Source of the DNA: Isurus oxyrinchus
Lineage: Eukaryota
Direction: 5' to 3'
DNA: 64,000 nucleotides
Assembly: GCA_026770705.1 (NCBI GenBank)
Contig: JANJGN010000034.1
Span: forward strand, 4,712,001 to 4,776,000
Shown here: positions 5,311-49,887 of the stretch, one piece after another
Position numbering within the stretch: the stretch's first letter is position 1
Layout: each line of letters begins with the position of its first letter
Notes under the pieces: model-generated
Databases searched by the model: none
What the model was told of the DNA's origin: nothing
The model's input: only the letters and a program-made list of their open reading frames with translations
Program-made: the position numbers and the translations under genes

Positions 5311-5346
5311 AAGTCCAGAAACTGAAGGACAGCCTCGATGATCAAG
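5311..5346 (+). CDS. Coiled-coil microexon A1 (36 nt, phase 1-1): (E)VQKLKDSLDDQ
   Basis: Pyrimidine tract + tatgtag acceptor; CAAG|gtgact donor; 36 nt; heptad Leu pattern shared with the other 36-nt exons. The first residue depends on an unseen upstream exon. Confidence 0.85.
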
Positions 5347-6635
5347 GTGACTGCAAGATGAGTTATCGTTCACATGAAGATGGTAAACTAACTTTTATTT
5401 ATGTCCTCTTTGCTGAAGTTGAATGCTCACTGAATTATTTCATTATATTTTTCTTTTAACATTGTTCAATTGCTTCCTTGCTTCTAAAAGCTGATGGTAC
5501 CAATTGCGATGTACGTTTGTGAAATTGGTCATAGAGTAGGGGAGGAAAAAAGGAGTCCTTGTTCCTTGTGCATTTATACATCGCTCACTCTTCAACCTTC
5601 AGCTGCATGGACATCAAAATAATTTCTGCCCTGTCATTTGATGAATACAATGGTGACTCCGTAACTTTCACGAATCAGTAAGATAAGGAACATGAAATCT
5701 CTCTGTATTTGCTTCAGAATAATCTGAAACAACTGCGCCTTCAGCATGTGGTCTAACAATGCTGGAACTAGAATTATTTGTGTTTCGACAGTTCGCAGCT
5801 CCGATAAGGTGTGATCTGAATATGTACAAATGTGCAGAATGGGACTGTCCTCCCCAGATCAGCACAGGAGGTCTTTATGGATTTTTGTGCCGTATCAACA
5901 CAGTTTCAGCTCATTTTATACGCACATCCTTTGTTTGTATTTTTCACACAGTCTCACACCATTCTGGATTCCTCTTTAGACACTATAAAACGAGGACCTT
6001 AAATTCATGGGCATTTATTTGGAACCCAATGCATGTGTGCTGCGTTTATCTTGTCGATAGGCGTCATGATTTGAAACATATCCGCTTCGTCAATCCTCTG
6101 CCTCTAGAGAAAGGAATCAAAGCCACTTTGCCCTTTCCTGATAGAGATGAATTATGATTACGGTTGGGAAATACACCTGTGTTGATTTTGACATTTCAGC
6201 TATCGATTTTTTAAATCTCCTGTTAATTTGCTTTGCATTTTAAATTAACTTTGCAAATGCCAAGGCTTGGAAAATCTAATTTGTATGAAGTCCAGGAACT
6301 TGCATTGCCCTACAAGTATGATTTGACAAAACTTGTAATTAACTTTAAAGTAAAAAAAAAACAAGAATATTTGTTACTGCTGGATAGTTTCCTCTATATC
6401 AATGATTAAGACTTCCTTTCCCTATTTATGCTCGGTAGCACGCCAATAAACAAACCTGGTAGAGTATTTTCTTTCCATATCGACAGCACTTTTTTTAATA
6501 AGCTAACTACAATGAAATAGTGATCGTATTGTTTTCAAGTTAGGTCTAAATTAATGTTCCCAGAAGATCGTGAAAATAACCTTTCGCTCATGTGACAGTT
6601 CATATGATCAAATTATGAATTGATATCCCGAATAG

Positions 6636-6662
6636 AACAGAAATTGGGCAAGAAGGACAGAG
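6636..6662 (+). CDS. Coiled-coil microexon B1 (27 nt): EQKLGKKDR
   Basis: aatag acceptor; AGAG|gtaagg strong donor; matches the 27-nt E-x-K-L-x-K-K consensus. Confidence 0.85.
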
Positions 6663-7740
6663 GTAAGGCTACTGGCCTCTATCTAGGCTAAGTTTATGTT
6701 TCTAGTCTATTTTAAGCTCGTTCATGCTTTGCCGGTCGCATTTCAAAAATAAATTGAAGTATTCTTACTGAACATGCTAAAATAATATTCTGTATTATTG
6801 TAGTTTTTTTGTCCCTTATGAAAAATTTGCTGCCCGGAACTTGTGCAGTTATTCTTTACCTTCGAGGCAAAGTTGGTTCCTTTAATGTTTCTCTTACTTC
6901 AAATTTTCCAATCCAAATCTTCCTCTATTGTATGTAAGTTATACATAGGAGAGTGAAGTGAAAATAAAATTGTCATAACCTTCAAAACTCAATCTTTGGG
7001 AACCAGCTAGGCAATTTTGTCCAGCTCTTAGTGCCACGTAATCAAACAACTTTAATGCCCTCGAGGAGCATATAGGTAATATTTTGCAATTTGGAACAAC
7101 AGATAAATTATTTCACTTAGGCAGAGTGCTTATATGGTTCAGCACTATAAAAAATGTATTTACCATACTTTAAAAATTGAAATCAAGGTTGACAGATTTC
7201 GTAACAAGGGATTATTTGTCCTGGCAGAAGGTCAGAACTCAAAGTACAGAGTTTGAAGATAATGGCCAAAAGATGGATTATAATCTAATTAGCAGTCAAT
7301 TGCTGCGATCTGAAACACACTCGTTGAAGGGAGAATGAAAAACGTGAAACACTAACTTTCAAAGCAGTATTCGGGAGAAACAACCAGGCAGGCAATCTGG
7401 AGGACTCTAAGGAACAAATACAACAACTCTTTAAGAGAACCAACACTGTCAAGATGGCAGTATGTGTAAAATGCGATTGTTTAATTTCAAACAGCTCTGC
7501 TGCCTGCTTAATATTTTATACTATCAAAATGTATATAACTGAAATTCGGAAGGAAATTAAAATTTAGAATTGTTCTGTACCAACCATTATGTACTAGAGG
7601 CTAATGTGAGCTCTGCAGCCATTGTTCTGGCTTGAGCGATGTGAAGCTATGGCTATCTGCGAGTTTCTCGAAACCATATCAAGGATATAATCTTTACTAC
7701 CCCACCCTCTTCCCCACCCCACCCCAAAAACCATCCTAAG

Positions 7741-7776
7741 AACTGGAGAAGCTGAGGAAAAAGCTGGAAGATTATG
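7741..7776 (+). CDS. Coiled-coil microexon A2 (36 nt): ELEKLRKKLEDY
   Basis: cctaag acceptor after C-rich tract; TATG|gtgagc donor; closely similar to the exon at 11395. Confidence 0.85.
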
Positions 7777-9091
7777 GTGAGCACTAAACTAATTCATTTG
7801 TTAACCATTTTATTAAGTGAATATCAGTGCATGTGTCAGTCTCACTGGCGCAGCAGCCGTGTCTTCCCTGGGACTTAAGCATATGTTGAAACAATACTCT
7901 TTCTGGGATGCAAGCCAGTGTGCATCTAATCGGATATTTGGTATAGAAATTACATTGTGCTGCCGTCAACAAAGCGCGGTCTATATGTTGCCAAAAGTGA
8001 TTCCCTTCCTTTGTTATCAAAGTCCATGATGAACTTAGGACTCAACGAGTCGCCAGGCATCACTCATTATATTAATGCAATCATAAGCACATGAAGAGAT
8101 CTCCTGATGTTCGTACCATGAAAAGGTTATAATCTAAATGTGGACACAAACCGATCAGAAGTACCATCCGGATGCCCTTTCTCCCGCTAAACTATCCTGG
8201 AATTCAGGCACGCTCGTCCCCCCGTCCCCCCCAACCACTAACCCACTCCACCTCACCACCACAAAACACCCCCCTCTGCACACACACAAAAATATTGCTC
8301 TGGCTAGATCAACTCTTAATTCAAAGTGTTTGATTGATTGTTGTTGTGCCATAATAATATGTCACGCTAATGCGGGAGATAAACAACAGCCATGACTTAA
8401 TTGGTAACTGTACGAAGTAACAGGCTGGAGCCCAAGATTGGATTAATCATTTTACATAGTTCCCCATTGCCTGTTACTCCCAACTTTACTCCTGCTACGG
8501 TTCATATTGATGTTATTTGTCTGTTAAGTCTAGTTTTGGCTATTCTGTCTTCTGCATTTCCACGACCATTATATGTTGTCTACATTGGAGGTTACAGAAA
8601 AACACTGCTGCCCGTCAAAGACATCTAAAAAAGAATGAATGAGATATAGTGCTAGTGCTCGATGAACTAGATTGGATCTTTTAAAAGTAACAACCCGATA
8701 CTGCAATGCCCATTCTGTTCAAATTCCACATTCCCTGTTACCTCCTCCAGCCTGACAAATTTTTAGGCTATGTAAATCTGTCGAATATGTGCCTTTTGAG
8801 GTGCCACGTAGTAAATTGCTCCAAATTTTAAGTTTGTACCTTGAATGGTCCAGGCAGTAAGAGTGGAAATTAATGCGTAAATCTCTTTTTGATCCTTACG
8901 CTTCTCTCATGCATGAAGGCGCAATGTAAGACTTACTGATTTCACCAAGCTTCTCTAATATCAACTTACCTTGATTTGAGTCTAATAGGTTTTTTTATTC
9001 GCTATTGTGAAGTACTTATACTTTTTTTGATTATGTATAAACGTGAAAGTTTTGTTGTTATTCCTTTTACGATCATTGATATTTCTCTTAG

Positions 9092-9118
9092 AAGAAAAAT
9101 TGAATAAGGAAGAAAAAG
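9092..9118 (+). CDS. Coiled-coil microexon B2 (27 nt): EEKLNKEEK
   Basis: atttctcttag acceptor; AAAG|gtaaag donor; 27 nt, phase 1-1. Confidence 0.88.
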
Positions 9119-9399
9119 GTAAAGAAATGTTTGAAGACATTTTAGTAAATGATATTACAATTCTTGTTATTCTTGTTATTATTATTAGTTTTAATAATAA
9201 CAATATTTATGCTATGCTCCTTTTGTTTCTCCATAATTGGATTTGCTTCACAACCTGAAAATAGATTGCAATTTGCGATTTTTTTTAAATACTGGAGAAA
9301 AAGTCGAAGGATTTCCTAATGTTTGCTATGTGTATGTTCAATGTCGTATTTTCATTTGTAGCCAATGAAGCAGGCACACTTGCAAACAAGGGTATGCAC

Positions 9400-9557
9400 C
9401 AACACATGATCTCACACATGCACTCACACATACACACTGACACATGCCCACATACTCACATACCCACGCTCACGCACACACACACAAACACAGGTGCAAA
9501 CTCAGATGTGCATACTCAGATGCACACACTCAATCATGCATGCACACGCACACACAG
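9400..9557. repeat. Degenerate (CA)n tract
   Basis: Direct reading. Confidence 0.85.
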
Positions 9558-9942
9558 ATTATTTATACCTTTGTACCTTTATGCCTCTCTAGATGATGAG
9601 CAAGGTTGCAGCTGCATTGCTTGCATTAAGACATTGACTGCAATTTATTTATTGTCTTCTCAATGGGTTCTCAGGTAAGAAGCATGTGAGAGGTCATGCA
9701 TTAACTCTACTTCTTATTTTATTTCCTTTAGTTTCTGGAAATGGAGCATACATCGCATTGGCATTGTTGCACATCCAGCTCAGTTCTTTTTTTATCTTTT
9801 TGTTTTTGCTGATGGCCCCACAGTCACTGTAGGCCAAATGCTCCTCATCTACGATGTTTCTTTGTTCATCATTTCTAACATTTCTGTTACTGGCTACAGA
9901 TAGTGGCACGTACCTCATTCCCTACTATCGATATGTTTGTAG

Positions 9943-9978
9943 AGTTGAAGAAATTGAAGGAGAATGTAAACGATCACG
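9943..9978 (+). CDS. Coiled-coil microexon A3 (36 nt): ELKKLKENVNDH
   Basis: gtttgtag acceptor; CACG|gtgggt donor; similar to the exon at 5311 (KLKD/E...DQ/H). Confidence 0.85.
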
Positions 9979-10422
9979 GTGGGTGAAGCAGTTTTGATTT
10001 TACCTTTTGTTTCCTTTACGATGATTGACATTACAGAGTCCCTTCACCGATAATTATGTCTTCAATCGCTTGCCTGAGGGCAAAATGTTACGACAACTAG
10101 CTCAGGAATCAGATAGGGATATCAAGGAAAAATGTCGATTTGATTTTACAATGCCAGAAGATATAATTTGGGATGCATTGCTTCAAAACATTTTTGCAAG
10201 CAGATTCACTGCTAACTTGCACAGTCAGACAAAATATGTAATTTAAATAACAATAAGGCAGCATTATCTTTAAAGCAACCAAGGCTTTGGCAAACATTTG
10301 TTGCGCTTTTAACAGCAAGGACGGTATTGTAGTACATACTCCATTGTTCCCACATATATGTATACTTGGGCTATTTATAGCGTTGTAAATGTTTTGATTA
10401 ATTTGTACACATCGTCCAATAG

Positions 10423-10449
10423 GGAAAGAGCTTGGGAAAAAGGAAAAAG
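10423..10449 (+). CDS. Coiled-coil microexon B3 (27 nt): GKELGKKEK
   Basis: ccaatag acceptor; AAAG|gtaatg donor; similar to the exon at 6636 (LGKK). Confidence 0.85.
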
Positions 10450-11394
10450 GTAATGGCATGACCTTGGCTGTTTTTTATATAGTTCAAACTTGTTTTGCTT
10501 TGAAGCATTTGAATAGTCAATCTGTGTTCTTCAAATACATGTTGTGAGAGAAAAACGAAGCACATTGCTCCACGGGTTAATATTTTGAAATTGTATCCTA
10601 CACTCACTTTGAAGGGGTAATCAATGAGTTGGGACTTGCCAGGGGTTTTTGTGCGATTGTAAATGCTCCATCGTTATTTTTGCAATTGAATTGACATTGA
10701 TTCTTCTGGATTTGCGTGATAATTGCCATTTACTGCATCACAGTGTGTGACAATCAGTCCCACTCTTTCCTCTGGAAATTGAAGTAATATATGTCACAAT
10801 TTGTATCGTCCCGCTAAGAATAGTTCTTATGGATATTATTTCAAACCGGAAATTACTAACGTATTTTGCCTTCCTGAGTTGATTTATTGGTACAAGCATT
10901 CTTTCTTCTCCAAAAGTAAAAGCAAAATGCTGCATGCTCTGGAAATGGGAAATTGTGAAATAACCTGAAAATGCTGCAGAAACGCAGAAGGTCGAAAGAA
11001 TCTGCAGAGACAAACATGGTTAACGTTTCAAATCAATTGCAGAACTTCATCAGAACTGATCACTGACAGCTGAGTGTCTCCAGTGCTGCTAATTTTTATT
11101 GCTTTGTTTTTGATTTTTTTTTTTTACTATTAGTATGATTACCAATTATGGAGAGGTATCAGAGTATATTTCTGTCTTGCTTAGGATATTTTATGTACCT
11201 CCTATACTTTAGACTTTATATCAATCCTTCTTCAGTTAATTATTCTTTCACCACTCTGCAACACTGCCCGGATATGCAAAAGCACGTACTTATCATTTCG
11301 TAATGATTTCCGAGGGCGAGTATTTTTCGGTGTAGAACATTCTTAAAATTTAGGTGATGAATCATAGTGCTAACATTCGTTGTTCCTCCCCCAG

Positions 11395-11430
11395 AACTTG
11401 AGAAACTGAGAACCAATCTTCAGGACTGCC
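11395..11430 (+). CDS. Coiled-coil microexon A4 (36 nt): ELEKLRTNLQDC
   Basis: tgttcctccccag acceptor; TGCC|gtgagt donor; 36 nt. Confidence 0.88.
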
Positions 11431-12399
11431 GTGAGTAGAAAGCAATGGACTCAATATAACTTTAGAATGTCTGATTATCGACCCATTCCTGTGGTTCAAT
11501 CACACATGGTACAAAACGGCATGTCCCAGCCGCTATTTGCGATGGGCAGAGGACAGGCCGTACCCAAACAGCCCTTGTTTGCAGAATTCAAAATACAGTA
11601 TCCAACATTAGGTGTGATTCTATGAGTGTAGCTCATTTGATAAGTAGGTCTCACTGTGTGAAGAAATAAGCAGACAATAAATTTATAATTTTCAATTGGT
11701 CTCGCATTGGCGTGTGCTGGATGCTACACGCTTTAATGCACAGGGCCCTGTTCTTTGCAGGTAGGAAGGACACATAAACACATTGCTCCTGTTTCAGCTA
11801 AACAAAATAAGTTACTGCCATGTAGTTCCTTAGTCCTGAGGGCAATGCATTGATGAAGCAGGTCAAAGTGACTCTTTTATATTTGAACTAATATTTGGAT
11901 TTTAAATGTCAGTCACAATCAGTGGTGCATTCCACATGGTAAATACACTTGCCAACCAATCAGCCTTTTCTTCATATTCAGTGTAATTTTTCGTTTACCC
12001 CGTGTATTTGTATGCCAGCGAGGCACTGTTATGAGTGTACAAGAAGAGAATCATATTCGTGCCTCTTTTTTCCAGCAACTCACAAATTCTGTACTGCCAA
12101 ATGACTACTTCCTTAATTACTGATGCCGGTACTTTTACGGCAATATATTCGAGAGTAACTGGCTTGTATGGTTGCGTCCTTTCCCCGTCATTTCCTGGAT
12201 AGCGATTTTGTACTTAGGAACGACCTAGGCATTGAACTTTATCCAGGATCTGCTAAAGACGTGAAGCGTATCCATTATAATCTGAGCTTCAGCAGCTTGC
12301 TTCTCTGGGACCCATTGATGCAGGCTGTCGGATTCTGTAATATTGACAGCTTAAGTGTCCTAAAATGAGCCAATAATTTGCCGGCTTTATTGTTATCAC

Positions 12400-12862
12400 A
12401 TCTACAAATATCCACTCCCTCCACACCGAAACACATTTACAGCAGTGTGTAATGTTTACAAGGGGCAGTGCAGAAATTCGCCAAGCCAGCAGCTTCCAAA
12501 CACACGGCTGCTGCTATCTAAAAACTGAAGCGCAGCAGATGCTTGGGAACACCGCTACCTCTATCTGCCCCGCCCCCACACCTCATAACCCAAGCATCAC
12601 AAAATACGTACTTTGTAGTGATGCTCCTTCACTGTCGCTGGTTCAAAATTCTGGAACTCCCTTCCTAACAGCTTTTTGAGTATAATTTCATCACATGGGA
12701 TGCAGCTATTCAAAAAATCAGCTCACCACTTCATTCCCAAAACAAATTTGTTGCTGTCAATGAATGCAGGCCAAGTCACCAATGTTCATGCCACATGAAT
12801 GAAAGAGTCAGGAATGAATGAATGAGCAAATGAACGAATGCATTAATTAATTAATTAATTAA
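12400..12862 (+). mobile_element. 3' end of the same CR1-clade LINE family, with (GAAT)n/(TTAA)n tail
   Basis: Shares 'tcactgtcgctggttcaaaattctggaactccctt' and 'cagctcaccac' blocks with 3900-4190 and 37700-37900. Confidence 0.75.
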
Positions 12863-13199
12863 AAACCAGATCAATAAACTGGTCAATGAACACATAATAA
12901 ATACCATCTGCTTCTATTAATTGTCCTAATAACAGGTCTGTATTAGTCCCTTGGCTACACTCTCATATAAGTATGCCATTTAAGTTTTCTAACGTGAAAA
13001 CAGGTGAGGTTGGATTGGAGTCCCAAATTCGCTCCATCGCTAAGTCCACCAATTTCGAAACGCACATCAGCACCTGACTGCTCCCTTGTCGCAGCATCTC
13101 TCAACTAAAATGCCCATTCAAACTTGAGTTTCTGATTTGTTCATTGTTTATCAATGCACTCTTAGTTGTTTTCACACATCTATCAAATATAAACTTGAG

Positions 13200-14180
13200 A
13201 TTAGCAACAACCGTACTTCCAGTATTTTATCTCATGGCAGGCTTCATTCTTCTATCACTGTGTGGCTTGTCACCCATATTGGCTCAAAGTAAACAACGTT
13301 TATAAAATTTATAAAAATTATAAAATTTTCATTCTTGTTTCGAAATCGCCCCATGCCTTCAACCATTATGCATCTATGATCTCATCCAGACCAATAAGTT
13401 CCGAGATATGTCCCGTAGTTCTGCCACATGCTCTTTAGAATTATTGGACTTTCACCATGTGTCGCTCATTTAAGAAAAAAAGTCTAAGGGTTGGCTCTTT
13501 GATCATGCTTTGCGTCACCTGAAGAACTATTGCTCGATGTGACTCGTTGTCGTAATTTTGTCCATAATGCTGCTGTAAGGAGGTTTGCGGCAATTAGGGT
13601 GCTGTAAGAGCATCTTATTTTCGTTAGAAGCCTCTGCAATTTCTCAGATGTCCGTGATGATTTGTTTCGCCTCTGACTCTACCAACATTTTATAAAGCCA
13701 CACTCCCAGCATGTGTATGCTTTTTAAAGCTCCTGCATCTATAATTGTCAAATGCCGGTTTCTGACACAGCCTTATCATGAGGTTTCCTATTGTTCCTTT
13801 GAACGCCACCAGCCTATAATATTTTTACACCACAACCCTTAGTTTACATTGTATGCCAAAAATGGGATAATGCTTGCTGAGATTGTTTTTAACCAAATGC
13901 ATAGTTGTGGAAAGTTCAGAATCGTCGCTTTAAATATTAACCACTAATTATTTAAGTTATTATTTTTAGTTGATTTATCCAATCAATGTTTGTAGTTGAT
14001 GACAGTGTGAGCACAAATAAGAGTGAGTTGATGTGTCGAGCAAAGCAGTAATGAATGCAAAAATGGGGTTCTCAGTTGAGAGGTACTCAGAGAGACGAGG
14101 TGAGAGGCGATACTGCAGCATTGGAATTGCTGCGGTTTGAAAAGCAGTGAATATGAGATTGCCATCCATACAAGATAAGA
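13200..14180. mobile_element. L2/CR1-like LINE fragments (plus 13200-13620; minus 13975-14170)
   Basis: ORF 13975-14169 RLSPRLSEYLSTENPIFAFITALLD resembles the L2 ORF2 C-terminal RLRPxLSxxxAETLIHAFITSRLD. Confidence 0.5.
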
Positions 14181-14489
14181 AAGCTAAACAAGCATTTTGC
14201 CTCTCATATCATTTTAATTGTACTTTTTACATTCAAAAATTATTTTAGGCTGAGGCAAGTTGCTTTAAAATTGAACATGGGACTCAGTTCTGTTCTACTT
14301 GCCTCTTCCCGAACATATTTCTCCATGAAATTATTGATTAATCATGACTCAATGCGAAATAGTTTACCTAAAATAGATTTAAAATAGACTTTTTTGGTGA
14401 AAGAAGACTGTCTTAATAATGCTGCAGGTAGATAGTTTAAACTTGTGCATATCACCATATCTTGCATCCGCTTTGCTTCTTGAATGTAG

Positions 14490-14516
14490 AACTGAAGATA
14501 AGCAAAGGGAGCAAAG
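14490..14516 (+). CDS. Coiled-coil microexon B4 (27 nt): QLKISKGSK
   Basis: ctttgcttcttgaatgtag acceptor; AAAG|gtaagg donor; 27 nt. Confidence 0.82.
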
Positions 14517-15779
14517 GTAAGGGAGGGACGTATGTTTCCTTATTTTCCAGTTCAGCATATGTGATGTAAAATTCCTTGGCTGTTGCCAGAGACCAAGTAT
14601 TACCAGTCTAGCCTTTCATTCCGCACATACTGAATTGTTGACACGTTCAACAATAGTATGCTTCAAATCCTGCTGGTTTGTTGCAGATATAATGATGTAT
14701 ACAAAAGTGATATTACTGATTGAAGTTGATAGAAAGGATCCCTCTGCGGTATTTCGAACAAGGCCAGAAGAAATCCTCTGCATTTCCCTAACAGGCAGCC
14801 ATAAGAAAAAGTGACATGCCATTATAATTTTCTTGTTCATGGAACCCTGTTGCCTTCGTATGGGCTGATGCATTTGTTATGTTACTGAATTCTCTACACT
14901 TCAAAATACCGGCACAGTATACAAAGTGCTTTCAAATGGTCTGAGCAACGGAAAAAAAACGAATGGAACATTATGTTTCTTACGTCGTTACACCGGTTTT
15001 CAATTGCAACCACTTCTTTAATGTTTATATTTTTCATTCGATTTGGAATTGTGGAGTTTGTATTGGAAAATGCTAGTACCAAAATATTGCACCCATTTTC
15101 TCTACTTTTGCCGAATATTGGACGTTGCAGTTAATACGTTTAAGCAGATAATGATAAAATCATTTAAATTCAGAATGGCGCCTTTGATATGCTGACATGG
15201 CTCAAGTACTGCACACTTACTGTTACGCTTCAATTTTCTTCCCGTTGCCTCTCTTTTTTTGCTCAGATAATCAATCAATTTCCTATCGAAAGTGAACTTT
15301 GAAACTGGCAAGCATTTATCCTCATGTTCTTTGCTGGAAGTATTCCAAATTTTGCGCATCAACCGTCCCCTGCATCGACCGCTGTATGTTGTGAAAATTG
15401 GATGAATATAGCCAAGTATTGCACTATTCCTTCTCATCCGTCCCTCAGTTTTCTCAGTTGAACCAACGCATTTGCGGACATGCCTACAATCAGGTGAAAT
15501 TGGCGCAGAAAGTCGAGCATTTTTGCCCCTCTCACGTGCTGCGCCAATAACTAAGATCATGGCTGGCCAGTTTGTGTTTCAAATTCTCATCATTTTCCTG
15601 ATTCATTTCTGGAATGTGGACTCAGCTTGCTGAGCCACCATTTATAGTGCGGCATTTGTAGTCCATCCCTCGTTACCTTTGAGACAGTGGCGGATGTGAA
15701 AGGACCTTCAATACCCAACTGAACGGTGTAGAACACTATGAACACCTCAGGTATCAGGTAAGCAAAGGGTTAATGGGTT

Positions 15780-17368
15780 AAATGCCTTCTAACTGCATGA
15801 CGAGGTACAAAGTATTTGGCAAGCTAATGAGACATGCTGCCAGCAACTGATGGCATGCAGCCAAGTATTCAAAAAAAGTCACTGCAGAGAAAGGGGAGGC
15901 ATTTCCGTAAATATTACAGAGCTCAGTGGATTCCAGGATGGTCGCAGCGGATTGGCAAATGGCTAAGGTGACGCCCCAGTTCAAGAGGGATGGGAGACAA
16001 AAAGCAGCACACTATAGGCCAGTCAGCCTTTCGTCTGTCGTTTGGAGAATGCTAGGGAGCATTATAATGAAAGAAATAGCAGGACATATAGAAAAAACAG
16101 AGATTTGAGGCGGTTTCATGAAAGGAGCAGCCTGTTTGGCAAATTTCCTAGAGATCATTTAGGATATAATCAGAGTTGATACATTGACACAAGCAGATGT
16201 AATGTAGTTGGATTTCCAGAAGGGATTACATAAAGTGCCACATAAAAGGTAATTGCACAATAAAGGAGCACACGATATTGCCCTAGTGTATTTGCATGAA
16301 TTTAGGATTTGTTAACACACAGTAGACAGACAGTCGGTATGATTTTTCTTTGTTCAGTTAACAAATGCATAACTGTTGGATTGTCACAAGTATGATTTCT
16401 AGGGCCTCAATGATTTAATATCAGTGTTAATTAATTGGAGGAAGGGCTAGAGTGTAATATATCCACAATTGCTGTCTATGCAAAGTAAGTTGTGATGAGG
16501 ACATAAGAAATCGGCAAAGGGCTATACATATGCTGAGTGAGTGGGCGAAAACTGGGCAGATGTAGATAAATTTACAAAAGTGTGATTTCATGCACTTTAG
16601 TCAGAAGAATAAAAAGGTACACTGTTACGTAAATGGAGAAAGACTCCAAAAAAGCCTGCAGCACAGAGGATTGTGTATGTTCTTGTGTATGAAATACAAA
16701 AAAGGTAAATGCAGGTGCAGCAAGGAATTAAGCAGGCAATTAAAATTTTGGCTATTCCTAGAGGTTGATGTTTAAAAATGGGGCAATCTAGTTACAAATG
16801 TACAGGGAATTGACGAGGGCCCATCAGGGGATCGTTTTTTTCCCCATATTTTAGAAATGATAGAATGACATCGGAGGAATTTCAAAATTGATTCACTAGG
16901 CTGATAATTGGCTGAAGAGTCTGAATTTAAAAGGGTGACTAAAAAGCTTAGACTTTTATTCATTAGTATATAAAAGAATATTCGGTGATCTTATTGGAAA
17001 ATAAAAAAAAAAAATCTGATGGGGCTTGATTGGGTGGATGTCGAAAAGATGTTATCACTTGTTGTGGAATCTCGATCAAGGGAAAATAGTTACATAATAA
17101 GGGGATACTTATTTAAACCTGAGATGCAAAGGAATCCTTGCTCTCAGAGGGTAGTGAATGCCTGGAATTCTCTACCGCAGAGGGTTGCGGACGCTATATC
17201 AATGGAATTATCTAATGGGAGTAAGATAGATTTTTGAAATATCGGAAGTTAAGGGCTAGAGGGGCAGGGATGAAAGAGTAGTTGAGGGCTGCGACAGATT
17301 ATTTAATAGCCGGGCAGGCTTCAGAGTACGAATGACCGTCTCTTGCTCCTACTTCTTATGTTCTTAAC
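15780..17368 (+). mobile_element. CR1 LINE ORF2 relic with 3' end
   Basis: WQMAKVTPQFKRDGRQKAAHYRPVSLSS and SQRVVNAWNSLPQ motifs; 3' end ttcttatgttctt. Confidence 0.9.
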
Positions 17369-17369
17369 A

Positions 17370-21780: not shown

Positions 21781-21808
21781 CAATGATGACATTTGTCTCT
21801 TATTTCAG

Positions 21809-21844
21809 AAATAGAATCACTGAAGAAGAGACTTCAAGGATTTG
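21809..21844 (+). CDS. Coiled-coil microexon A5 (36 nt): EIESLKKRLQGF
   Basis: tgtctcttatttcag acceptor; TTTG|gtaaga donor; I/L/L/F at heptad positions. Confidence 0.88.
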
Positions 21845-39400: not shown

Positions 39401-39427
39401 AGGAAAAACTAAAACTGAAAGAAAACG
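39401..39427 (+). CDS. Coiled-coil microexon B (27 nt): EEKLKLKEN
   Basis: Strong acceptor gtttttctcacag; weaker donor AACG|gtggat; B-type EEKL. Confidence 0.8.
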
Positions 39428-40765
39428 GTGGATTATTCAGAAAATATGCTTCTTCCTCAAATATAACTGCCCTTAGCAGTTAGTTCAAGGAGAGGATATT
39501 ATTTGCTGCATCTTTTACAATCTCGGAACAGTACCAAAGACCACCCTTGTTTTCATAATGTTCTTACTGTTCTCGAATGCAACACATACAGGCCTGCAAT
39601 TTAATCAATGCTCAGGCCAGCCAAATTGCCCACTCCCACGTTTTCATATTATCTCAACCAATTCAATATTTCAGCTACCTCTTCTGTCATTGTTGACTTC
39701 CTTAGTAAATACAAGTGCAGAAAATTCACTTTCTAACTCATCACTACTGTCTGCTTGCCTCTGTGACTTCATATTTTTGTCCCTAATAGACAGTGTGCCC
39801 CCCTTGATGCGCTTTGCTCTATTTTTCCAAATAATTCGCTTGAATCCCCTTCTTAGTTTCGCTGCCTACATTTTCTCATATGGATCCTTTAACATTCTTA
39901 TATCGAATTTGTGCCTGAGCTTTAGTGATTGGTTTTCAGTGGTATTACTGACCTCATATGCACATTTGTTTGTTTGTGCATTTTTTATTGACTGGGTTTA
40001 TGTTTCGGCCTATGTATTAGTATGCCATTGTCCCTCAACGTAATTCTCTCTCTCAGACATTGCTGCATATTGCATTACTGGTAGATTTGCAGGCATTCAT
40101 ATGAATTGTTCAGAAATTCATGTCTTTTATATGCATTTCAACGAACTATGCCTCACAAAGTCACCAGATCAATGAAAACAGGTGATTTTTTGCAGTTGAA
40201 GGCTTTCAGAATTGTTTCATACGTTATTGTTCATGGTTCTTTTTACGCGTCTTCTGCAGTTAGAGGGGCGAGAGTTCCTTTATTTGTTGCAAGCAGCTTT
40301 GGAGACAGCAAAATGCACTTGTGACTGAAAAATAATCGTTGCCTGACACTCGAATTCTGCACAGAATCGCAGCTTTACTACACGACTTGAAATGTTCATG
40401 TGGGGTGGGATGGTTTCCCGACAAAGTTATCTTCTCGGTTGACTGAAGCATCCAATCCTCGCGATTGCACAAAAACTCAGCATGCTCACGGTGTCTTGTG
40501 CAATCTTTACCAAGCAATCCAGAAAAAAAATAATTTTATATCACTGTGCATTTTGCATTTTCATCCTGTCCAAAAATTAACTATTGTATCTCCTATAGTA
40601 TCGCAATGCAATAGCTAAAATATCTATAAATCACCCTCTGTGTGTTTTAATGCATCCTTCGATTTGTAATGCCAATTTGCCCAATTAACTGTCAAAAATA
40701 AAGTAATACAATGACTGAATCTAAACCAATTGAAATTAGCGAGAAAGTAATGTAATTTCTTTCAG

Positions 40766-40810
40766 CGGCAGAGATGCAGTTGGAAATGTTCAAAGTTTTG
40801 GGAGAGTTAG
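40766..40810 (+). CDS. Candidate 45-nt phase 1-1 exon: AAEMQLEMFKVLGEL
   Basis: atttctttcag acceptor; TTAG|gtcagt donor; open and frame-preserving, but diverges from the A/B consensus. Confidence 0.5.
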   Translation, partial: RQRCSWKCSKFWES

Positions 40811-41099
40811 GTCAGTAGCTTCATTTTTGAATGGCAATTGCCCGTTAAAAAATAAATCTGTTCCCCCAAATTTCGTAGTGCCACTGTGGAATTGTAAATT
40901 TTGCATTTGTAGAAGTTTCTCACTGCATCCATAAAAAGCTAAGATTAAATGAAACTATATGGTATAATGTTAAGAAAATCAGGATGCAAAGCAGTACAGA
41001 CGATATTCCCCAGAGGCTACCTCAATTGAGAAAGAGTGCATGAGTTCCTGTAACAGCAAACAACGAGAAAGTGAGTGATTTTTCATCATATCCTTGTTT

Positions 41100-42340
41100 C
41101 TAGAAGTTAAATGTCATTGAAAAGGCATCCGAGGTAGCCGTAATCGCATGACAGTAGTTCACATGCAGCTTGGGAGAGAGAAAGAGGGGCAGTTTAGCAC
41201 AGGGTAGTGTTTTAAACTTGAATCAGGACATAAGTGAGGGCATAGCACAGAACTGGCTAAAATGAACTTGCATATCAGGAAAGCAGTCCAAATAAGTAGA
41301 GCTGGAGTGGCAAAAAATCAAGGAGATATTTCAAAATATTCACAAAAAAATCATTATCCCAGTGAGACGTAAATGCTCCAAGATAGGAATGCATCTTAGG
41401 TGCTAAATTATGGAAGTTAATATCAGTATGAAAATGAAAGGAAACGCGTTTAATTACATGAACATGAGAGCAGGATAAATGTTTGGGCAGAAAGTAAACA
41501 GCAGCAAAGAATGGCGGAGAGCGCTCATTACGAAGATGAAAATAATAATGATAGAAGGTTATGTAGGAATAATTTAAGAAGCACAGAAGACCGAGTTTCT
41601 ACTGTTTTTAAAGGAACACAAAAGAACAGTTTAAGTAAATGATTTTCGGTCCTCGAAATAGTGAGACTGGCGAATTCCTTATGGACGGTAACGAAGCTGT
41701 AGAAGAACAGAATAGTTATTTTGTCTCTGGCAACACTGTAAATGATGAAAAAATATCCAAAAAAAATTGGTCAAGTATATTCTGGCAATTTTCCAGTAAA
41801 TTAAAAATAACCAAATCTTAACCCCTCTGTTCATGAAAGAAAGGTGGCATGAAACAGGGGATTACAGGTCAGTTAGCCTAATATCAATTGCAATGAAATA
41901 TCTGAGACATACTAATAAGGTGCTTATGCCGTGGCACTTCTGTATTCTGAGTTCAATAAGGCGGAATCAACACTGGTTCAATCAAGTAATCTATTTGCAG
42001 CATCAAGGATCCTCTTGGGCTTTGACAATGTGGATGCCAAAAGATTGCTTACCCCTTTTCATGAGGCTATAACAAAGGGCCCCAATTATCAACTAGGGCG
42101 TTCCCATTTAAGACATAGGGTTATACGCCACTGTAACCTTCTTCCCTGGATGAGGTTCATTGGAGAGTTGTAATGTAGAAGAAGATAAGTTATTGACTGA
42201 TAAAGGAATCAATGTTTTTTGGAGCTAGAAGTATATGGAGTTGAGGCCACAATCAGATCGGACACAATCTTTTTGAAAAGTGGGGCAGTCTGGAGAGGCT
42301 TAATTGCCTTTCCAGCATAGAAAATGTAAATTCGTACGGA
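41100..42340 (+). mobile_element. Degraded CR1 LINE
   Basis: ORF 41833 ETGDYRSVSLIS (NYRPVSLTS-like); CR1-like 3' end near 42240-42320. Confidence 0.7.
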
Positions 42341-42765
42341 TGCTCGTATGAGCCAGGCGATTAGGTTTTCTGCATATCTTACTCAGAGAGAAACATTTGT
42401 TAACAGCCAAATTAGGTAGATGAATGCCATCAGCCAGGATATTCGTGACAATTAAACATCAGCTATGAAAAAAAAATGAACCAAACGGGAGCTGCTTTAA
42501 ACTTCAGAGACGTGGATTGACCGAAACTGTGCAACATCATGCGAAATGAAAACAACTAAGGACCTTTGCTTAAGAGTTTTCACTCAGCTTGATTAACCAA
42601 CCTTCTTCCTTTAATACAAAATAAATTCAAAGAGATAGTGAAAGGTACAGACAAATAGTTACGTGCATTCCATCATTAATGATTTTGCTCTCTTTCATAA
42701 GAATCGCTTGTTTAGATTTTGACAGACAATAGCCATGATTAAATAAAATAATGACTTTTGTTTAG

Positions 42766-42792
42766 ACTTCGAAAGTAAACTCCTGGTTGATG
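42766..42792 (+). CDS. Candidate 27-nt exon: DFESKLLVD
   Basis: cttttgtttag acceptor; GATG|gtgagt consensus donor; exact 27-nt phase 1-1 size, divergent peptide. Confidence 0.6.
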
Positions 42793-43177
42793 GTGAGTAG
42801 AAGAAATCACGAAATGTTGCCTTAGAGAACAGGTACATTCATTACACTATTTATCACAGGCTTGAATGGACCATATATCTTTAGATGAAATATAAAATGA
42901 ATGACGTACTCACTGTATGCATGGCATTAAGTCTTAAATTTATGTACACCACCAGCTGGTACACTGGTCGAGAATGTATTTTAGAGAGAACTATATAAGC
43001 ACATGAAGCAGAAATCAGTTAAATATCGGATGCATGGATGCTCACATATGCAGCTGCAATATAAGCAGAAAGCATGACTATTTTATTCAGGTGTGGCAGA
43101 TCTTCGCATTGTTAACTTGTGCATAATGACTGCAATAGTATTTTCCGTAAATGCCTTCCCCTCCTTTTACGTGACAG

Positions 43178-43204
43178 GAGCTGAACTAAGTGAAAAAAAT
43201 GCAG
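43178..43204 (+). CDS. Coiled-coil microexon B (27 nt): GAELSEKNA
   Basis: ccttcccctccttttacgtgacag acceptor; GCAG|gtacaa donor; L at position 4 and K-N as in the exon at 49861. Confidence 0.75.
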
Positions 43205-46200
43205 GTACAAGATTCAAATCCTGCCTGGTGGCTTCAGGGTTAACGTGGAATGTTCTGGGGCACAAGTCAGTCTTGTGGAATTGAACATGCTGCTATTATG
43301 CAACTCATTGAACAGCTAGTTCTACACCGCCAATAGATGTGACTGACTTCGACAGAGCAATTATGTAAGGAGCTAAACAGGAGTGTTTGTAGGGGAATTC
43401 GAGAAGGCCTCAGTAGGTGCTGGTAACGGATTTGGCAAAAAAAATGTCTTTGCCCACCGCAAAGAATTCGGACTTAAGTTGCGCCTTAAATGAGGATTCG
43501 GAGATGGAGAGGGGTTGAGGTTTACAGAGATAACTCAAGGGCTGAGCATGTAGGCAGCTGAAACGAACAGAATGTGTTAATGCCTCTAGAGACCAAATTT
43601 GGAGCAGCCCAGAAATCTCTTCGGACTTTGGGAACGTGGGAGCCTTGATTATGGGGAAAGGGTCAGGACATGGATCGATCCAAAAGATTCAACGGGGATA
43701 AATCTCTAGTCGTATTTTTTTTTCACCTTGGGAATGAAACAAATTCAAAGGGATTGATTATTTGAAGGCCGGGAAAACAACCCTCGATATAATACGGCCA
43801 GTTTTCCAGTCCTGGCCAAGAACTTTAATCTTAAACCCACATTTCAGAGTGTAACAGTTCAAGTTGACTGAATTCTCCAACTGGTGCTGACAATTACCGA
43901 TTACCCCGAGTGGCACATAGATGCATGGGGTGATTCCACAATGAGAGTAAACACAGAGATAATTAGACTGTGATGTCGTCCAGCACTCCATATTATAATA
44001 AATCAGCGTGCAGCTCGTAAAATTATATAACCCTTGACTTTGCAAGGAAGCTTGCGGCTGGATGCGCTTGTGTCACCAAAACTTGTTGAACAGGTAGAGA
44101 GGAGAAAAAAATATCAATGGAATTGATGCATTTAGGAGTGATGTACATAATGCGAGGATCTGGAATATATTCTTGAACTATACAAAGCCTGAATAAGCTG
44201 TATGTATATTTCTTCAAGCCCAAGCTTAGGAAGGTCATTTAGGCTTTTGGGGAGACTACCATTTAGTTTCACTAGCGTCAAGACTGGATGCCATGGATAA
44301 GTTGTGATGAGGCAAAAATTCAATTGTTTTCTATAACCAATAATAGGAAGGTGGCAACTTTGAGGAGATGAAGGAAAGGGATATGTTGAATCCGAAAAAG
44401 AAATATAACTGTCAAAAATTTTGCTGCACGCTATTATCACAGCATGACCAACATCAGCTTAATGATGGTAGACATGCTTCTCACCTGCAAACTAGATTAG
44501 AGAATCGATTGGATTTTTTACAAGAATCAGATAATTTATGCTCATGAGTACAGTTTTGCGAATGTATGCCTTTTAAGGTCATATGCCTTTTAATGGGGCG
44601 GTATTCAAATTCATGGTCTGCAACTACATGACATCTATAATGCCCTTACCAATAATTATCATAATTAGCTGGAGGCCTGCATAAGCTACATAAAATAAGC
44701 AATGAATTCCGTGGGCCATCCACTAACTCTTTGACTCTCTCTCTGGAAAGGCAGAAATTTATTGTTCATTTATCAGTTCCACTTGAGAAAGGAATCATTG
44801 TTCTCTGAGTTAACCTGGTGCATTTTCTGTGAAACAGAGCCAGTACCCTGCTGTGGCTTGATAGAGTGGCGGGAAAGAAAGAGCATATATTTACGTGCAG
44901 CAGCATGGTGTGTGTTTGAGAAATGTAGGGCAAGGAGGAGTTCATGATATCCCCACTGCATCTGGTGAACCTTCACTTCTTACTGCTGCACGTCACATTT
45001 TAGAGCTGTTGTTGATGATACCGTGCATGGCTCATTCACTCCAGCCTGCTGAGAGCGGACAAGTTGCATTGTGGGCTCAGCTTCTGGATGGAATTTGACC
45101 GATCATATCAGGTAAGAATACCTCGCACCACGTTCATATTCTGCTTGTCTGAAAAGTATGAGGAAGCTGTGGGAAATGCTTCTCCCAGATGTTCACCTTT
45201 GAATAGATTCGACAACCAAATTGATTTTATTCTGAGAAAGCTAATTGCAGGACTGAATGGCGTAAATTAAAATAGCAACCATGATTATGACACGTAATCA
45301 ACCCGATGAAGCATTAAATGACATTACATTGATGAAAGAATTATCAGGACAGAAACAAGGATCGAAACAAATACTCATGCCCGGATATTTAACAGAGGTG
45401 AGATAAATCATTGTTAGGAAACGTGCTTCCCACCCACCGCCCAACCCCCCACTATCCATTTCATCATGAAATCTGACGAACTTTTATGAAGTACTCAGAT
45501 CTCCAACCAGAAATGCGGCACCACCTTTGGGACTCACATTCCTGGATGCAGAGAACAATATCTATTCACCTAATTATACACGCCCCTACTACAGCCACCA
45601 TTTTTTTTTTTTGCACATCCCACTTGAATGACAGCCTCCACTATGGTTACGCAGTCAGCTTGCTCAGAAACCATGCAATTCCTGTTCTCCACACAAGCTG
45701 AAATAACTTTGATGCTTTGGCACAAATGCAAGGCTGGAGGCTACTCTTTTGTCTTTCTCACGGGTGCCCAAATGTGTCAGACTCGAACCAATGAACCTCT
45801 GTGCCTGACTACGGTCAGAAGCAAAAACACCCAGCCTAATGTTGTGACCAATTTCTGGAAACAAATGTCCAGGCAACTTTCCCTTTGGCGGATGCAGTGC
45901 ATGACCAGAGCTCGGATTCTAGATCATCAACTCAGACCCGAAGTTTCTCAATCTGCAGTCGATCCTGGATATGTTTCTTTTTGGACGTGAATCGCCCTCA
46001 TGCACACCAGTTTCCCCCTAATAATGCTGCAAGGCATCGTCGGCCCTTCCATCCTTATTCTCTTTCATTTATATAATTAGGTTTCAGGTTTAGAAATATC
46101 ATGCAAATTTTATACGCATTTAGATCATGAAGCTCAACTTGGAAAGCTATAAATTTGGAGGTTTCAGCTAATTGTGCATGGTTAGAGCCAAAAAATGGTA

Positions 46201-46596
46201 AAAAATCACCTTCAAATCATCTACGGAGGTTGGACAATCAAGCATTGGAGTTGTCCAAATGGATCTAAACAAATGTTTTGACGACTTGTAGAAACAATGT
46301 ATCGAAAAATTGGGTAACTCTTTCACCACGTAATTTTAACGCCTTTTAATTAACAACAGTAAGCATTACTGGTTTACATTAAGTTTTTTTTTCACAAGGG
46401 CTTGCAAACATGGGTCCAGCTAATGGAAAAAAAGTTAGAAAAGTCAATTTGGATAGCATCGAAAGGCGAATTGAATGCATTCGTGAATGAAAGGGAAATT
46501 GCAATGTTATGGTGAAAGAGCAGAGGCTGGAAAACACTGACAAAGTGTTCCAAAATATTTTTTACATTTTACTTTATTGTACACTCTTCTCCTTTG

Positions 46597-46632
46597 AAAT
46601 TATGAATCTGAAGAAAAGCCTTCAAGCTGCAG
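46597..46632 (+). other. A-type 36-nt module with non-canonical TG acceptor (pseudo-exon or TG-acceptor exon): EIMNLKKSLQAA
   Basis: ctcttctcctttg|AAATTATGAATCTGAAGAAAAGCCTTCAAGCTGCAG|gttgaa; clearly homologous to the exon at 21809 (CTGAAGAAGAGACTTCAAG vs CTGAAGAAAAGCCTTCAAG). Confidence 0.65.
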
Positions 46633-46949
46633 GTTGAAAAGTTATAAGATTGATTTTTAATATTTAAGTTTTCCACAAATGCTTTGAGGCTACCTCAGAA
46701 CTGTTTTCTAACGCATATTAACCTCTCGAACTCGTTGCCACCGAATGGGTTGATGATGATAATTGAATTATATCTTTAAGGGAATTTGGGAAAGTATTTA
46801 AGAGAGAAAGGTATAGAAGTTTTGTTGAGAGCGTTAGATGAATACCTTGCAGATCACAAGAACTTGCAGACTCCCAATGTACCGAATAGTTTCGTTCCAC
46901 ATTATAGATGTGTTTTGATGCTATATCATGTGTTTTTGTGAACAAGTGT

Positions 46950-47560
46950 GCTGTTAATATGTTATCAATTCACGGATTTGGTGCGTCTGGTTGGCGGTCA
47001 TGTTTATTGTCCGCTTCAAACCTCCATTAGGAAGTTGGTGGTGATCCACCAGTTTGAAACTTCACTGTTCTTTTTGTGTACCTAAGCATTGTTCCATTAG
47101 TTACAAGATCAATTAATATCACACAGGCAGCCTGACGGAACAGGGACACATTTTCAATTTGGAATGAACTGTGATTTGGATGTTATTCCCTTCCGCCTGT
47201 TTTCCTTCTTGTTCAATGTTTTCAGATTTGTTAGTTTTCGACAATTCTGATGAATAAGTTTCTGCCTGTCGTTATAGTGAGTCTTTTAAACAAGCAGTGG
47301 GCCCATGAGGTATCGGTTACAGAGAATTTGGGAGTGAAGAATGATTGAACTCATGGGTGAAGAGCCAAACCATCTGCTTGTTTGTCATGGATGGAGATGA
47401 GCTAGTTCATTGCTGTTGCAGTTGCACTCACCAAGACATGTGGGGATTATGCCAAAGCTGACATGACTTGCATGCTGTAAATGGCAGACATTGTTTTCTG
47501 GAGCCAGTAACAGAATAGAACATCACAGAATACCAAAATACCGAAAATCTGTGCTGCCCT
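46950..47560 (-). mobile_element. LINE family 3' fragment, antisense
   Basis: Begins with reverse complement of the family tail (tttattg...aggaagttggtggtgatcc). Confidence 0.55.
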
Positions 47561-47667
47561 TTCAAGCACTGTACTTTTAAAGCATACTTATACTAATTAT
47601 TTTGGAGGCTGGGTGCCAAACGGCTCTTATGCCACTAAGAATCAAAGGCGACGGGGGGTGCAAAGGC

Positions 47668-47855
47668 TCTTCTCTTTCTCTCTCTCTCTCTCTACCTCTT
47701 CCTCTCTCCCTCTATCTCACCCCAGCTCACCGCTCCACCACCCCCCCCACTCACCGACTCCCCGCCACCACGACCCACCCCCCACACACCCCCACCAGCC
47801 CAACCGCCCCCCCCACCCCATCCCCGCCCCCCTCCCCCACCGCCAACCGCCCCAG
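47668..47855. repeat. (CT)n followed by C-rich low-complexity tract
   Basis: Direct reading; many C3-C7 runs. Confidence 0.9.
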
Positions 47856-48629
47856 CTTATGTCGGCTTAGAAATATAAATGTCTAAAGAAAAAATTCATG
47901 GGTAACCCTACCGTTTTCTTTTCCGACTATGGCCTTGGTATATTACATGCAAATTCGAGAATGCATATATGATCACAGGTTATGCTGCCGCCCATGAAAA
48001 ATTGGCAGAGTTCCTTCACTAAATGGGATTTTTTTAAAGAAAAAATTGACATTCCAATAGTATTCATTACTGGTGCTGGCTTTCCGGCTTCAGATTTTTC
48101 TGGTTGATTAAACATGTGTTGCCACAGCTACAGTAGTGGGATTGTACAGATACATCTGCAACTTTCGTCCAGTTCTCTGTATTATAGGCCAGTGACATTT
48201 CATCTATGTTTCTGATTGTTATAAGTCAATTTGTGCACCTCAAATCTTTGCAAATCAGATGCATGCGAAGGTACAGACTCTTGATTATGCTGGCTTACAC
48301 TGCCTCAAAGCTGCATCATTGTGCAACTATATTAGGACAAGTTCATCAATTTCGCGATGGTTGGAAAAGTAGATAAATGGAGCACAACAAGAAAGAAACT
48401 ACAGAATATGAAGCTAATGATTATGAGGCATCAAAATGACAACCACAATAAGAGAAAATGCAATGACATTAACATGCACAATTAGTTTAACTGTATGTGT
48501 GCAAAAACTACAGTCGCTAAGGCCCGCAGAAGCCAACCAAGCAAACAGGAAATGCATCTGTGGAAATTTCGGTGAAAACCACAAACATGAGACCAACAGA
48601 GTCTTTTCTGTATACATTCAAGGGATGTG

Positions 48630-49200
48630 TTGGCTGGACCAGCATTTATTACCCATCACTGAATTATTTTATGAAGAGCTGAATGTTGAACCCCTTCAGG
48701 CCATATGGTGTCGGTGCGATCAGAATGCTGTTAAGAAGGGTGATTGAGGATTTAGGCCAAGCGACAGGGTAATAACGGGATACCTCTCCAAAACGGCTTG
48801 TTGAGTGCCATGGAGGGAATTTTCGAAATGGTGGCCTTTCCATGCCTCTGTTTGTCCTTATCCTTTGAGATGGAAGTGCCATTTTGTTTGGAAAGTGTTG
48901 TTTAATGAGTCTTGATGTGTCTCTGCAGTGCACCTTGTAAACTGAATTCACTACTGCCAATGTTGGTCGGTGATAGAGCGGGGGAATGTAGGTGGTTATG
49001 GTACTAATCAAGCCAGCTGCATTGTCCTGGATGGTGGCAAGTGTTCTAATGCTGTTGGAGCTGCATAGATTCAGGCAAGGCGAGGGTATCCCAGCAAATT
49101 CTGCACTTGTGCCTAATAGGTTGTGTTCAGGCATTAGAGAGGCCTAGGTGAGTTACGTATCTCAGGAATTCTCTGCTCCTACCTGGCTCTTGAAATGAAT
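48630..49200 (-). mobile_element. LINE family 3' fragment, antisense
   Basis: ORF 48664-49134 IRTLATIQDNAAGLI..LYHRPTLAVV..YKVHC is the ORF2 C-terminus of the family. Confidence 0.75.
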
Positions 49201-49860
49201 GCATGTATATGACACGTTACGCATGGCATAGGAAACTTTCTGCTGATTGCCTCTTAATGCACAACCGCAGCTGATGTGTCTGTACTCCTCCATCTTAAAC
49301 ATTACTTTGAGGAAACACTGAGGAAGTTATGCGTGCACACGTTACTTTGGCTGGGGAATTCAAGTTCTACTACCAAGACTTACTCTTGTAGCACAGCTAA
49401 TAGAAGGGCTCGCTGAGGGCTAAAGGGCATAGCTGCTAATTTGTGCCTACCACAGGTGGAGTTTATCAGAAGTTAAGTTCCTTCTTCCCCACATTGGAGA
49501 AATGGTTGTCCAAGAAGTCACTTTCTAATTTTCTTTTTGAAAGTTATTACAGACAACGTATTTCACATCATGGGAAATATGAGCATTAAAATCAATCCTT
49601 ATACCTTACTTTGTGACATTATTAATCTACTGAAATATGTTTCAACCAATACCAATAGACGTGATCTCTGAAACCGATTCACATTCTATGTTCCCTGCTG
49701 AGTTTGATGAGATTGGCCTGAACGTTTAATTAATTGCAATATTACCTCAAAGAGGAAGCTGCATATATTTAAGAGGAACGAAATGAAAACATACAGGTAA
49801 GATTTATAATCGAATTATTAGCGAATCTACGTTAAGCCATGTGTATTTTCATTCTAACAG

Positions 49861-49887
49861 AGGAGCAGCTACGCAAGAAAAATATTG
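49861..49887 (+). CDS. Coiled-coil microexon B (27 nt): EEQLRKKNI
   Basis: ttttcattctaacag acceptor; ATTG|gtaaga donor. Confidence 0.85.

Follow-up and report, generated by a model that had tools for sequence, protein, structure and literature searches.

The DNA analysed here, a stretch of 64,000 nucleotides (nt) hereafter called the window, covers positions 4712001-4776000 of Isurus oxyrinchus contig JANJGN010000034.1 (C34), in a genome of 4.98 Gb. On its + strand the whole window (1..64000) lies inside a predicted gene that is built mainly of microexons of 21, 27 and 36 nt and ends in an exon for a B30.2 domain. An initial annotation of the window, which had proposed a hidden gene of 13 microexons encoding a modular coiled coil, understates the object, since the array extends far beyond both ends of the window. 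The gene belongs to a predicted chondrichthyan clade of giant microexon coiled-coil/B30.2 genes, far larger than was reported there.

The microexons of the window are bounded by AG and GT, free of stops and in phase 1, and were scored with profiles by leave-one-out. There are 13 of them on the + strand between 5311 and 49887, the same ends as in the initial annotation: six of 36 nt and seven of 27 nt. Their leave-one-out scores (14.2-30.2) are well above the reverse-strand control, which gave 6 matches scoring at least 12 in 924 kb, or ~0.4 per window. In the first profile test, the best of 104 reverse-strand candidates reached 6.0, and the two 36-nt exons that had not been used as seeds reached 22.5 and 21.2. 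The alternation of 36 and 27 nt described for the first nine exons holds strictly, and their eight junction codons are all sense. Three acceptors are weak (0.9, -0.4 and -4.4). Chance open reading frames or tandem repeats do not account for these microexons. The features of the window are as follows.

5311..5346, + strand: 36-nt microexon, profile score 24.6
6636..6662, + strand: 27-nt microexon with weak acceptor, score 17.0; paralogue counterpart at C34:6340398
7741..7776, + strand: 36-nt microexon with weak acceptor, score 25.7; paralogue counterpart at C34:6341452
9092..9118, + strand: 27-nt microexon, score 29.3
9943..9978, + strand: 36-nt microexon, score 25.3
10423..10449, + strand: 27-nt microexon with weak acceptor, score 24.2
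11395..11430, + strand: 36-nt microexon, score 26.6
14490..14516, + strand: 27-nt microexon, score 14.2
21809..21844, + strand: 36-nt microexon, score 28.6
32795..32830, + strand: 36-nt microexon, score 27.6
39401..39427, + strand: 27-nt microexon, score 30.2
40766..40810, + strand: probable diverged exon of the 36-nt type, 45 nt (39 nt from 40772), donor 9.2; outside the counted model
43178..43204, + strand: 27-nt microexon of a second subtype, score 19.7
49861..49887, + strand: 27-nt microexon, score 25.3
56278..56376, + strand: uncertain 99-nt phase-1 candidate exon, charged, acceptor 9.0, donor 6.9; outside the counted model

The candidate at 40766..40810 would restore the alternation and shares its last six residues with the 36-nt exon at -368862. 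At 9092, 32795, 69022, -1541 and elsewhere, acceptors occur in tandem at a spacing of 3-6 nt and could trim one or two codons in frame.

The array was traced outward through 860 kb of adjoining DNA, with profile calls made over 924 kb at a threshold score of at least 12. Positions outside the window are given as the C34 position minus 4,712,000. Between -701,734 and 102,277 we called 236 phase-1 microexons (36 of 21 nt, 108 of 27 nt and 92 of 36 nt), of which the 13 in the window make up ~6%. With 236 exons on the same strand versus 6 control matches, the proposal of a hidden multi-exon gene is supported. As the threshold goes from 15 to 6, the count moves from 217 to 280 and the control matches from 2 to 44. 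Among 259 candidates scoring at least 8, a stop falls in phase 1 in 11, compared with 174 and 108 in the other phases. Neighbouring 27- and 36-nt exons alternate in 169 of 219 cases (shuffled mean 108, maximum 132; 10,000 shuffles). From a 111-nt 5' exon, exon A, to the terminal B30.2/PRY-SPRY exon 40 kb beyond the window, the gene spans 811 kb with a median intron of 1,735 nt, and no other B30.2 exon was found between these two ends. Upstream of exon A, three profile matches scoring at least 8 in 53 kb were taken as noise. The parts of the gene outside the window are these.

-706463 to -706353: exon A, 111 nt, phase 1-1, at the 5' end of the array
-701734 to -667754: first 36/27-nt exons
-641502 to -520011: single block of 21-nt exons, 36 intact and ~23 dead copies (exon starts -641,502 to -520,031)
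-511430 to -1515: main 36/27-nt array
67292 to 95247: last microexons, with a match in the skate model
89745-89771: stop-bearing 27-nt exon, among the last microexons
102251-102277: penultimate exon, 27 nt
104507-105027: terminal B30.2/PRY-SPRY exon (PF00622, E value 2.9e-14), open reading frame

A search with a degenerate 21-nt pattern returned only two matches, both within this gene. One called exon, -443271, and one match sampled elsewhere on the contig, C34:6809395, are probably false, since both carry what we take to be a motif of a long interspersed nuclear element (LINE). GC donors occur in high-scoring microexons at 78324, -196768, -520031, -563409 and -636479. From about -86500 to -71600 there is a 7.45-kb tandem duplicate with 99.2% identity and two exons, representing either a very recent duplication or an assembly artefact.

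Predicted product and its heptad register

With five stop-bearing exons and seven exons ending in T omitted, in-silico splicing of 226 exons over 811 kb gave a stop-free model of 2,426 residues. Its highest 19-residue hydropathy is 1.13, so that it has no segment of transmembrane strength, and its repeat region consists of 21% Lys, 17% Glu and 13% Leu. In the 21-residue module, positions 2, 9 and 16 (heptad position a) are mostly Leu, positions 5 and 12 (d) are Cys, Leu or Ser, and position 19 (d) is Lys in 73 of 115 cases. The hydrophobic positions 2, 5, 9 and 16 noted in the initial annotation are confirmed, with position 12 as a further core position and 19 mostly Lys. Exons of 21 nt have Leu at position 2 in 34 of 39 cases. 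The power at a period of 3.5 residues is 0.80 in the genomic order and 0.31 for shuffled exon orders (maximum 0.48, n=300). Because the periodicity falls on shuffling, the exon order preserves the heptad register, and this dependence on order supports a modular coiled coil. A coiled coil rises by 0.1485 nm per residue; therefore, the 2,216 coiled-coil residues would form a rod of up to ~330 nm. Core d position 5 is Cys in 35 of 94 36-nt and 13 of 39 21-nt exons, most of which lie upstream of the window. Such residues would be opposed in a parallel dimer, where they might bind metal, take part in redox reactions or form disulphides.

Only 5 of the 236 exons with intact sites contain a stop, whereas 27.5 are expected under neutral drift (12-45 in 500 simulations). 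Among dead copies, stops are found in 5 of ~45 (Fisher P 0.012 relative to the 5 of 236); these copies were chosen by eye from 63 non-canonical matches after removal of shifted duplicates and noise. Individual exons arise through tandem duplication and perish when a splice site is lost. In a recent paralogous B30.2 pair, the proportions of non-synonymous and synonymous differences (pN and pS) are 0.044 and 0.088, respectively.

The B30.2 family and the upstream end of the gene

The predicted structure of the terminal exon folds as a B30.2 domain (predicted local distance difference test score, pLDDT, 71). Its top Foldseek matches are TRIM15 and TRIM7, and the template modelling score (TM-score) is ~0.6 to TRIM15, TRIM7 and BTN3A1 (~0.63 for BTN3A1). 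In an unrooted tree of 58 B30.2 domains, from which the family member on contig C21 was left out, 17 family rows stand on one side of a branch with 100/100 support, while the remaining 15 butyrophilin (BTN) and 26 TRIM rows are intermixed. Judged by sequence, the family B30.2 is a separate clade outside the sampled BTN and TRIM domains.

The family has named members in chimaera, skate, electric ray and five sharks. They are chondrichthyan wherever named, as are all the closest named B30.2 relatives, in agreement with the cartilaginous-fish setting suspected from the window. Automated annotation had been expected to garble such a gene, and family models are indeed short or misnamed: entries of two sharks hold the last exon only, models of 175-945 residues carry TRIM, A33 or butyrophilin names (TRIM39-, TRIM58-, TRIM69- or A33-like), and the 1,697-residue chimaera model XP_042192744 is called 'nuclear-pore anchor-like'. 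The latter parses into units of 7, 9 and 12 residues with a score of 257 (shuffled maximum 103), and the 945-residue catshark model P0186 with a score of 122 (shuffled maximum 71; 30 shuffles each). A single internal unit of 9 residues sets apart the members of RefSeq isoform pairs in chimaera, electric ray and catshark. RefSeq isoforms generally rest on RNA sequencing, and these differences are the only evidence of splicing, of an indirect kind. No RNA entry was listed as containing the B30.2 exon, and the four runs aligned were genomic contigs of a relative, ~93% alike, without a GT-AG joint among the matches listed; neither result has a bearing on expression.

A single-sequence search for longer relatives gave six TRIM-like matches at 33-36%. 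Clusters of long SPRY proteins from chordates (scores 0.79-0.92) are leads, and similar architectures may exist elsewhere. Two proteins outside the clade, P0074 and P0039, have coiled-coil-like segments before a canonical B30.2, possibly a convergent architecture; P0074 also contains long repeats and, close to its N-terminus, a hydrophobic stretch. We found no published description of this family in search listings that cover few subscription papers.

Close family B30.2 exons number four on C34 (58, 58, 44 and 40%) and one on C21, and all five of these paralogous exons have a 27-nt exon shortly upstream. The sole paralogue of exon A, at 147,457, lies 42 kb past the B30.2 exon of this gene, and a paralogue of exon B, the 36-nt exon that comes next, follows it; the 5' region of the paralogue is therefore bounded. 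This second unit, C34:4859457-6396330, measures ~1.54 Mb, begins 42 kb after the present gene and is roughly collinear with it (rho 0.60, P 0.008; 18 exons). Extrapolation from 18 exons in 60 kb gives it 461 exons (273-729). Microexons on the + strand were present in all eight 10-kb pieces sampled from C34 4.89-7.31 Mb. A third unit of ~1.1 Mb (C34:6.40-7.50 Mb), for which no copy of exon A was found, has a B30.2 exon close to that of the second unit and an upstream intron 90% alike. It may be a duplicate truncated at its 5' end, or else provide one larger gene with an alternative last exon. Two more remote B30.2 exons of the family, at C34:2708638 and 3474125 on the - strand, point away, and each has 27-nt exons upstream. 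At C21:89722236, a family member 61% like the catshark model lies within a large TRIM/BTN cluster, which suggests that the family arose there.

The initial annotation had taken the array for a BG/BTN-like receptor tail. The part of this that stands is the kinship of the B30.2 domain with BTN and TRIM together with the BG-like block of 21-nt exons; the receptor part is unsupported, since no Ig, transmembrane or signal exon was found, the named family models scanned are free of Ig and the B30.2 domains form a clade of their own, although the first coding exon, not located, may encode a short membrane anchor. No BTN-type IgC exon was found on C34 before 16.39 Mb (all 110 candidates scored), and IgC matches cluster on C21. 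In the 42 kb upstream of the paralogue's exon A, none of 135 frames of at least 55 residues contains Ig, RING or B-box above the Pfam cut-off, with one prokaryotic RING score below it (E value 0.009). The 53 kb searched before exon A of this gene, in frames cut at 10-kb borders, contain no Pfam family in 105 frames of at least 62 residues. Over these regions, the search for upstream signal-peptide, IgV and transmembrane exons that the initial annotation had proposed came back empty. A genome-wide V-set search, in which 150 of 3,319 candidates were scored, was swamped. Elsewhere on C34, there is one V-set Ig exon at 13.07 Mb and there are three C2-set Ig exons at 16.39-16.51 Mb. Ig was not found in the named family models scanned, and RING or B-box was absent from six of six.

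Two look-alikes were rejected: the transmembrane candidate at -647549 is presumably a remnant of LINE reverse transcriptase in another frame, and the signal-peptide candidate at -751213 is the antisense of a LINE frame. An ATG within exon A is doubtful as a start, being absent in the paralogue and preceded by codons that look coding. The 5' end of exon A is in phase 1, and the first residues of the exon are apolar. Its first nine codons differ between paralogues in a synonymous or conservative way, and therefore a further, probably short, coding exon should lie beyond those located. As a protein query, exon A matched only itself, and the N-terminus of the long chimaera model had no match below an E value of 1 in either upstream region.

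Weighing the explanations

We give slightly better than even credence to a single 811-kb gene for a cytosolic coiled-coil/B30.2 dimer of ~2,400 residues per chain, acting as a length-tunable tether or scaffold. In terms of known proteins, and with a little more belief than doubt, it is best read as a tail of the butyrophilin or BG kind that lacks the receptor portion, predicted from DNA alone. The predicted protein would consist of a short N-terminal segment, a coiled coil of ~2,200 residues and a C-terminal B30.2, with no RING, B-box, Ig or transmembrane segment. All microexons would be spliced into one messenger RNA (mRNA), and two chains would zip into a parallel coiled coil of at most ~330 nm presenting paired B30.2 heads. 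Every microexon is in phase 1-1, so that leaving out any of them keeps the frame. Loss of a 21-nt exon or of a 36+27 pair would shorten the rod in register, and loss of a single 27- or 36-nt exon alone would create a hinge. The tether or scaffold might keep a protein bound to B30.2, of cytoskeletal, trafficking or pathogen origin, some way off, as is thought for the soluble BG zipper tail and for enterophilin, and the protein itself would neither ubiquitinate nor signal across a membrane. We mildly prefer a cytoskeletal or trafficking tether to an immune sensor.

A number of observations weigh against this explanation. The gene is read from DNA and no spliced read was seen; its first coding exon was not located; and most family RefSeq models have only 175-460 residues, while the 1,697-residue chimaera model starts hydrophobic (15-residue hydropathy 2.3). 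A stop-free model required the omission of 12 exons, as retaining the seven T-ending exons creates six junction stops, and, because stop-free exons served as seeds for the profiles, the depletion of stops is somewhat favoured. Exon 89745 has a stop with intact splice sites (donor 9.6), and the counterpart unit in skate is open. There are ~45 dead exon copies, ~23 of them beside the 36 intact exons of the 21-nt block. In 22 disjoint pairs of recent duplicates, the ratio of non-synonymous to synonymous rates (dN/dS) is 1.04 (67 non-synonymous and 16 synonymous changes), and duplicate exons diverge by 0.16, barely below their flanks (0.19). Since stops are depleted and yet dN/dS is about 1, we conclude that the frame, splice sites and core are retained, whereas surface residues drift.

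These points bear on three other explanations. The array may be real without making one giant mRNA, if internal starts or heavy skipping yield coiled-coil/B30.2 proteins of 200-900 residues and the upstream part is a reservoir of drifting duplicates. We regard this as unlikely. It would agree with the short RefSeq models and their differing 5' ends, with a dN/dS near 1 and with the ~45 dead copies, but it leaves aside that stops are depleted and the register is kept across the array, that the paralogue is collinear and retains exons A and B, and that a chimaera model of 1,697 residues exists. Less likely again is a BTN/BG-like protein held in the membrane and carrying an extreme cytoplasmic tail, with an Ig or anchor exon that is located 5' of exon A or has escaped detection by being short or divergent. 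The lack of BTN IgC among the 110 candidates on C34 before 16.39 Mb and of any Ig family in the 135 and 105 upstream frames, the LINE origin of both look-alikes and the separate B30.2 clade all argue against such a protein; as neither an Ig nor a transmembrane exon turned up, the reading as a receptor lacks support. What it has in its favour are the 21-nt heptad exons, as in BG, the apolar, phase-1 start of exon A, the hydrophobic start of the chimaera model, the family member inside the C21 TRIM/BTN cluster and the skate relative, whose best sequence match in the PDB is BTN3A1 (E value 6e-23), including the last juxtamembrane segment before B30.2.

The least probable of the three, and one we consider improbable altogether, is that the copy described here is a recent null or a decaying pseudogene of a family functional elsewhere, in which exon 89745, when included, ends the frame before B30.2. 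The stop in this exon, with its donor score of 9.6 and the open skate counterpart, fits this view, as does dN/dS of about 1. However, the 27-nt exon 95038 (acceptor 14.5 versus 4.6) could replace 89745 and keep the alternation, the B30.2 exon is open, and BG tails too are cut by early stops in real transcripts (PMC5938342). Returning to the single tether gene, we also entertain a broader claim, tentatively and with more doubt than belief: that it represents an undescribed chondrichthyan gene family of megabase scale, encoding splice-tunable coiled-coil rulers that are assembled from hundreds of symmetric microexons and tipped with B30.2, and that the 1.54-Mb paralogue is transcribed whole, with more exons than titin.

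Significance and comparison with known systems

If transcribed as predicted, these genes would be among the most exon-rich of vertebrates and would take up ~3.5 Mb of the 19.9-Mb contig. They are nearly invisible to annotation, being represented by last-exon-only entries in sharks and by TRIM, A33 and nuclear-pore names elsewhere. If the proposed explanation is true, the heptad-microexon plus B30.2 module of butyrophilins would be a unit in its own right that dates back at least to the shark-chimaera split, and it would be a candidate for the orphan B30.2 proteins that have been considered in connection with BG. The genes would then also serve as a natural experiment on the splicing of hundreds of 21-36-nt exons across introns with a median of 1.7 kb, and on the way in which exon birth and death set protein length.

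The gene resembles chicken BG in its long coiled-coil tail of 21-nt heptad exons in variable number, which here are 36 and make up the smaller part of the array. The tails of BG comprise 13-36 such exons, and the zipper protein, a soluble tail, works on actin-myosin (PMC4046983); their length is changed by splicing (PMC5938342). In contrast to BG, which has IgV and a transmembrane region, neither was found here and a terminal B30.2 is present, with more than 220 exons that mostly form the 36+27 three-heptad module. BG itself is described without B30.2, and orphan B30.2 partners have been proposed for it (PMC8813856).

With butyrophilins, the gene shares heptad repeats on small exons followed by a C-terminal B30.2. 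It differs in that no IgV or IgC exon was found, in having hundreds of heptads versus few in BTN and in a B30.2 that does not group with BTN domains. It also departs from the phosphoantigen sensor BTN3A, as the residue at what we take to be the place of His381 in the B30.2 alignment is Asn in skate and Ser in this gene. In BTN3A, H381 has a role in the phosphoantigen pocket and the juxtamembrane coils are modelled as parallel dimers (PMC10665462), and in squamate BTNs the number of heptads is variable (PMC12841164). B30.2 genes have been placed near paralogues of the major histocompatibility complex (PMC3137616), a report that adds nothing on this family in the part available.

TRIM proteins also combine a coiled coil with B30.2, but no RING or B-box was found here, and the rod is built from microexons. 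Closest in architecture, going by its general description, is enterophilin, a cytosolic protein of the mammalian gut with an extended leucine zipper of tens of heptads and a B30.2, which matches the spliced model; convergence is likely. Enterophilin-1 binds SNX1 and lowers surface EGFR (PMC13749957). Titin, unrelated and used as the benchmark for exon count, likewise has hundreds of exons and a length tuned by exon skipping; the human gene has 363, described as the largest number (PMC3575840). By these feature tests, the gene is not a member of BTN, BG or TRIM.

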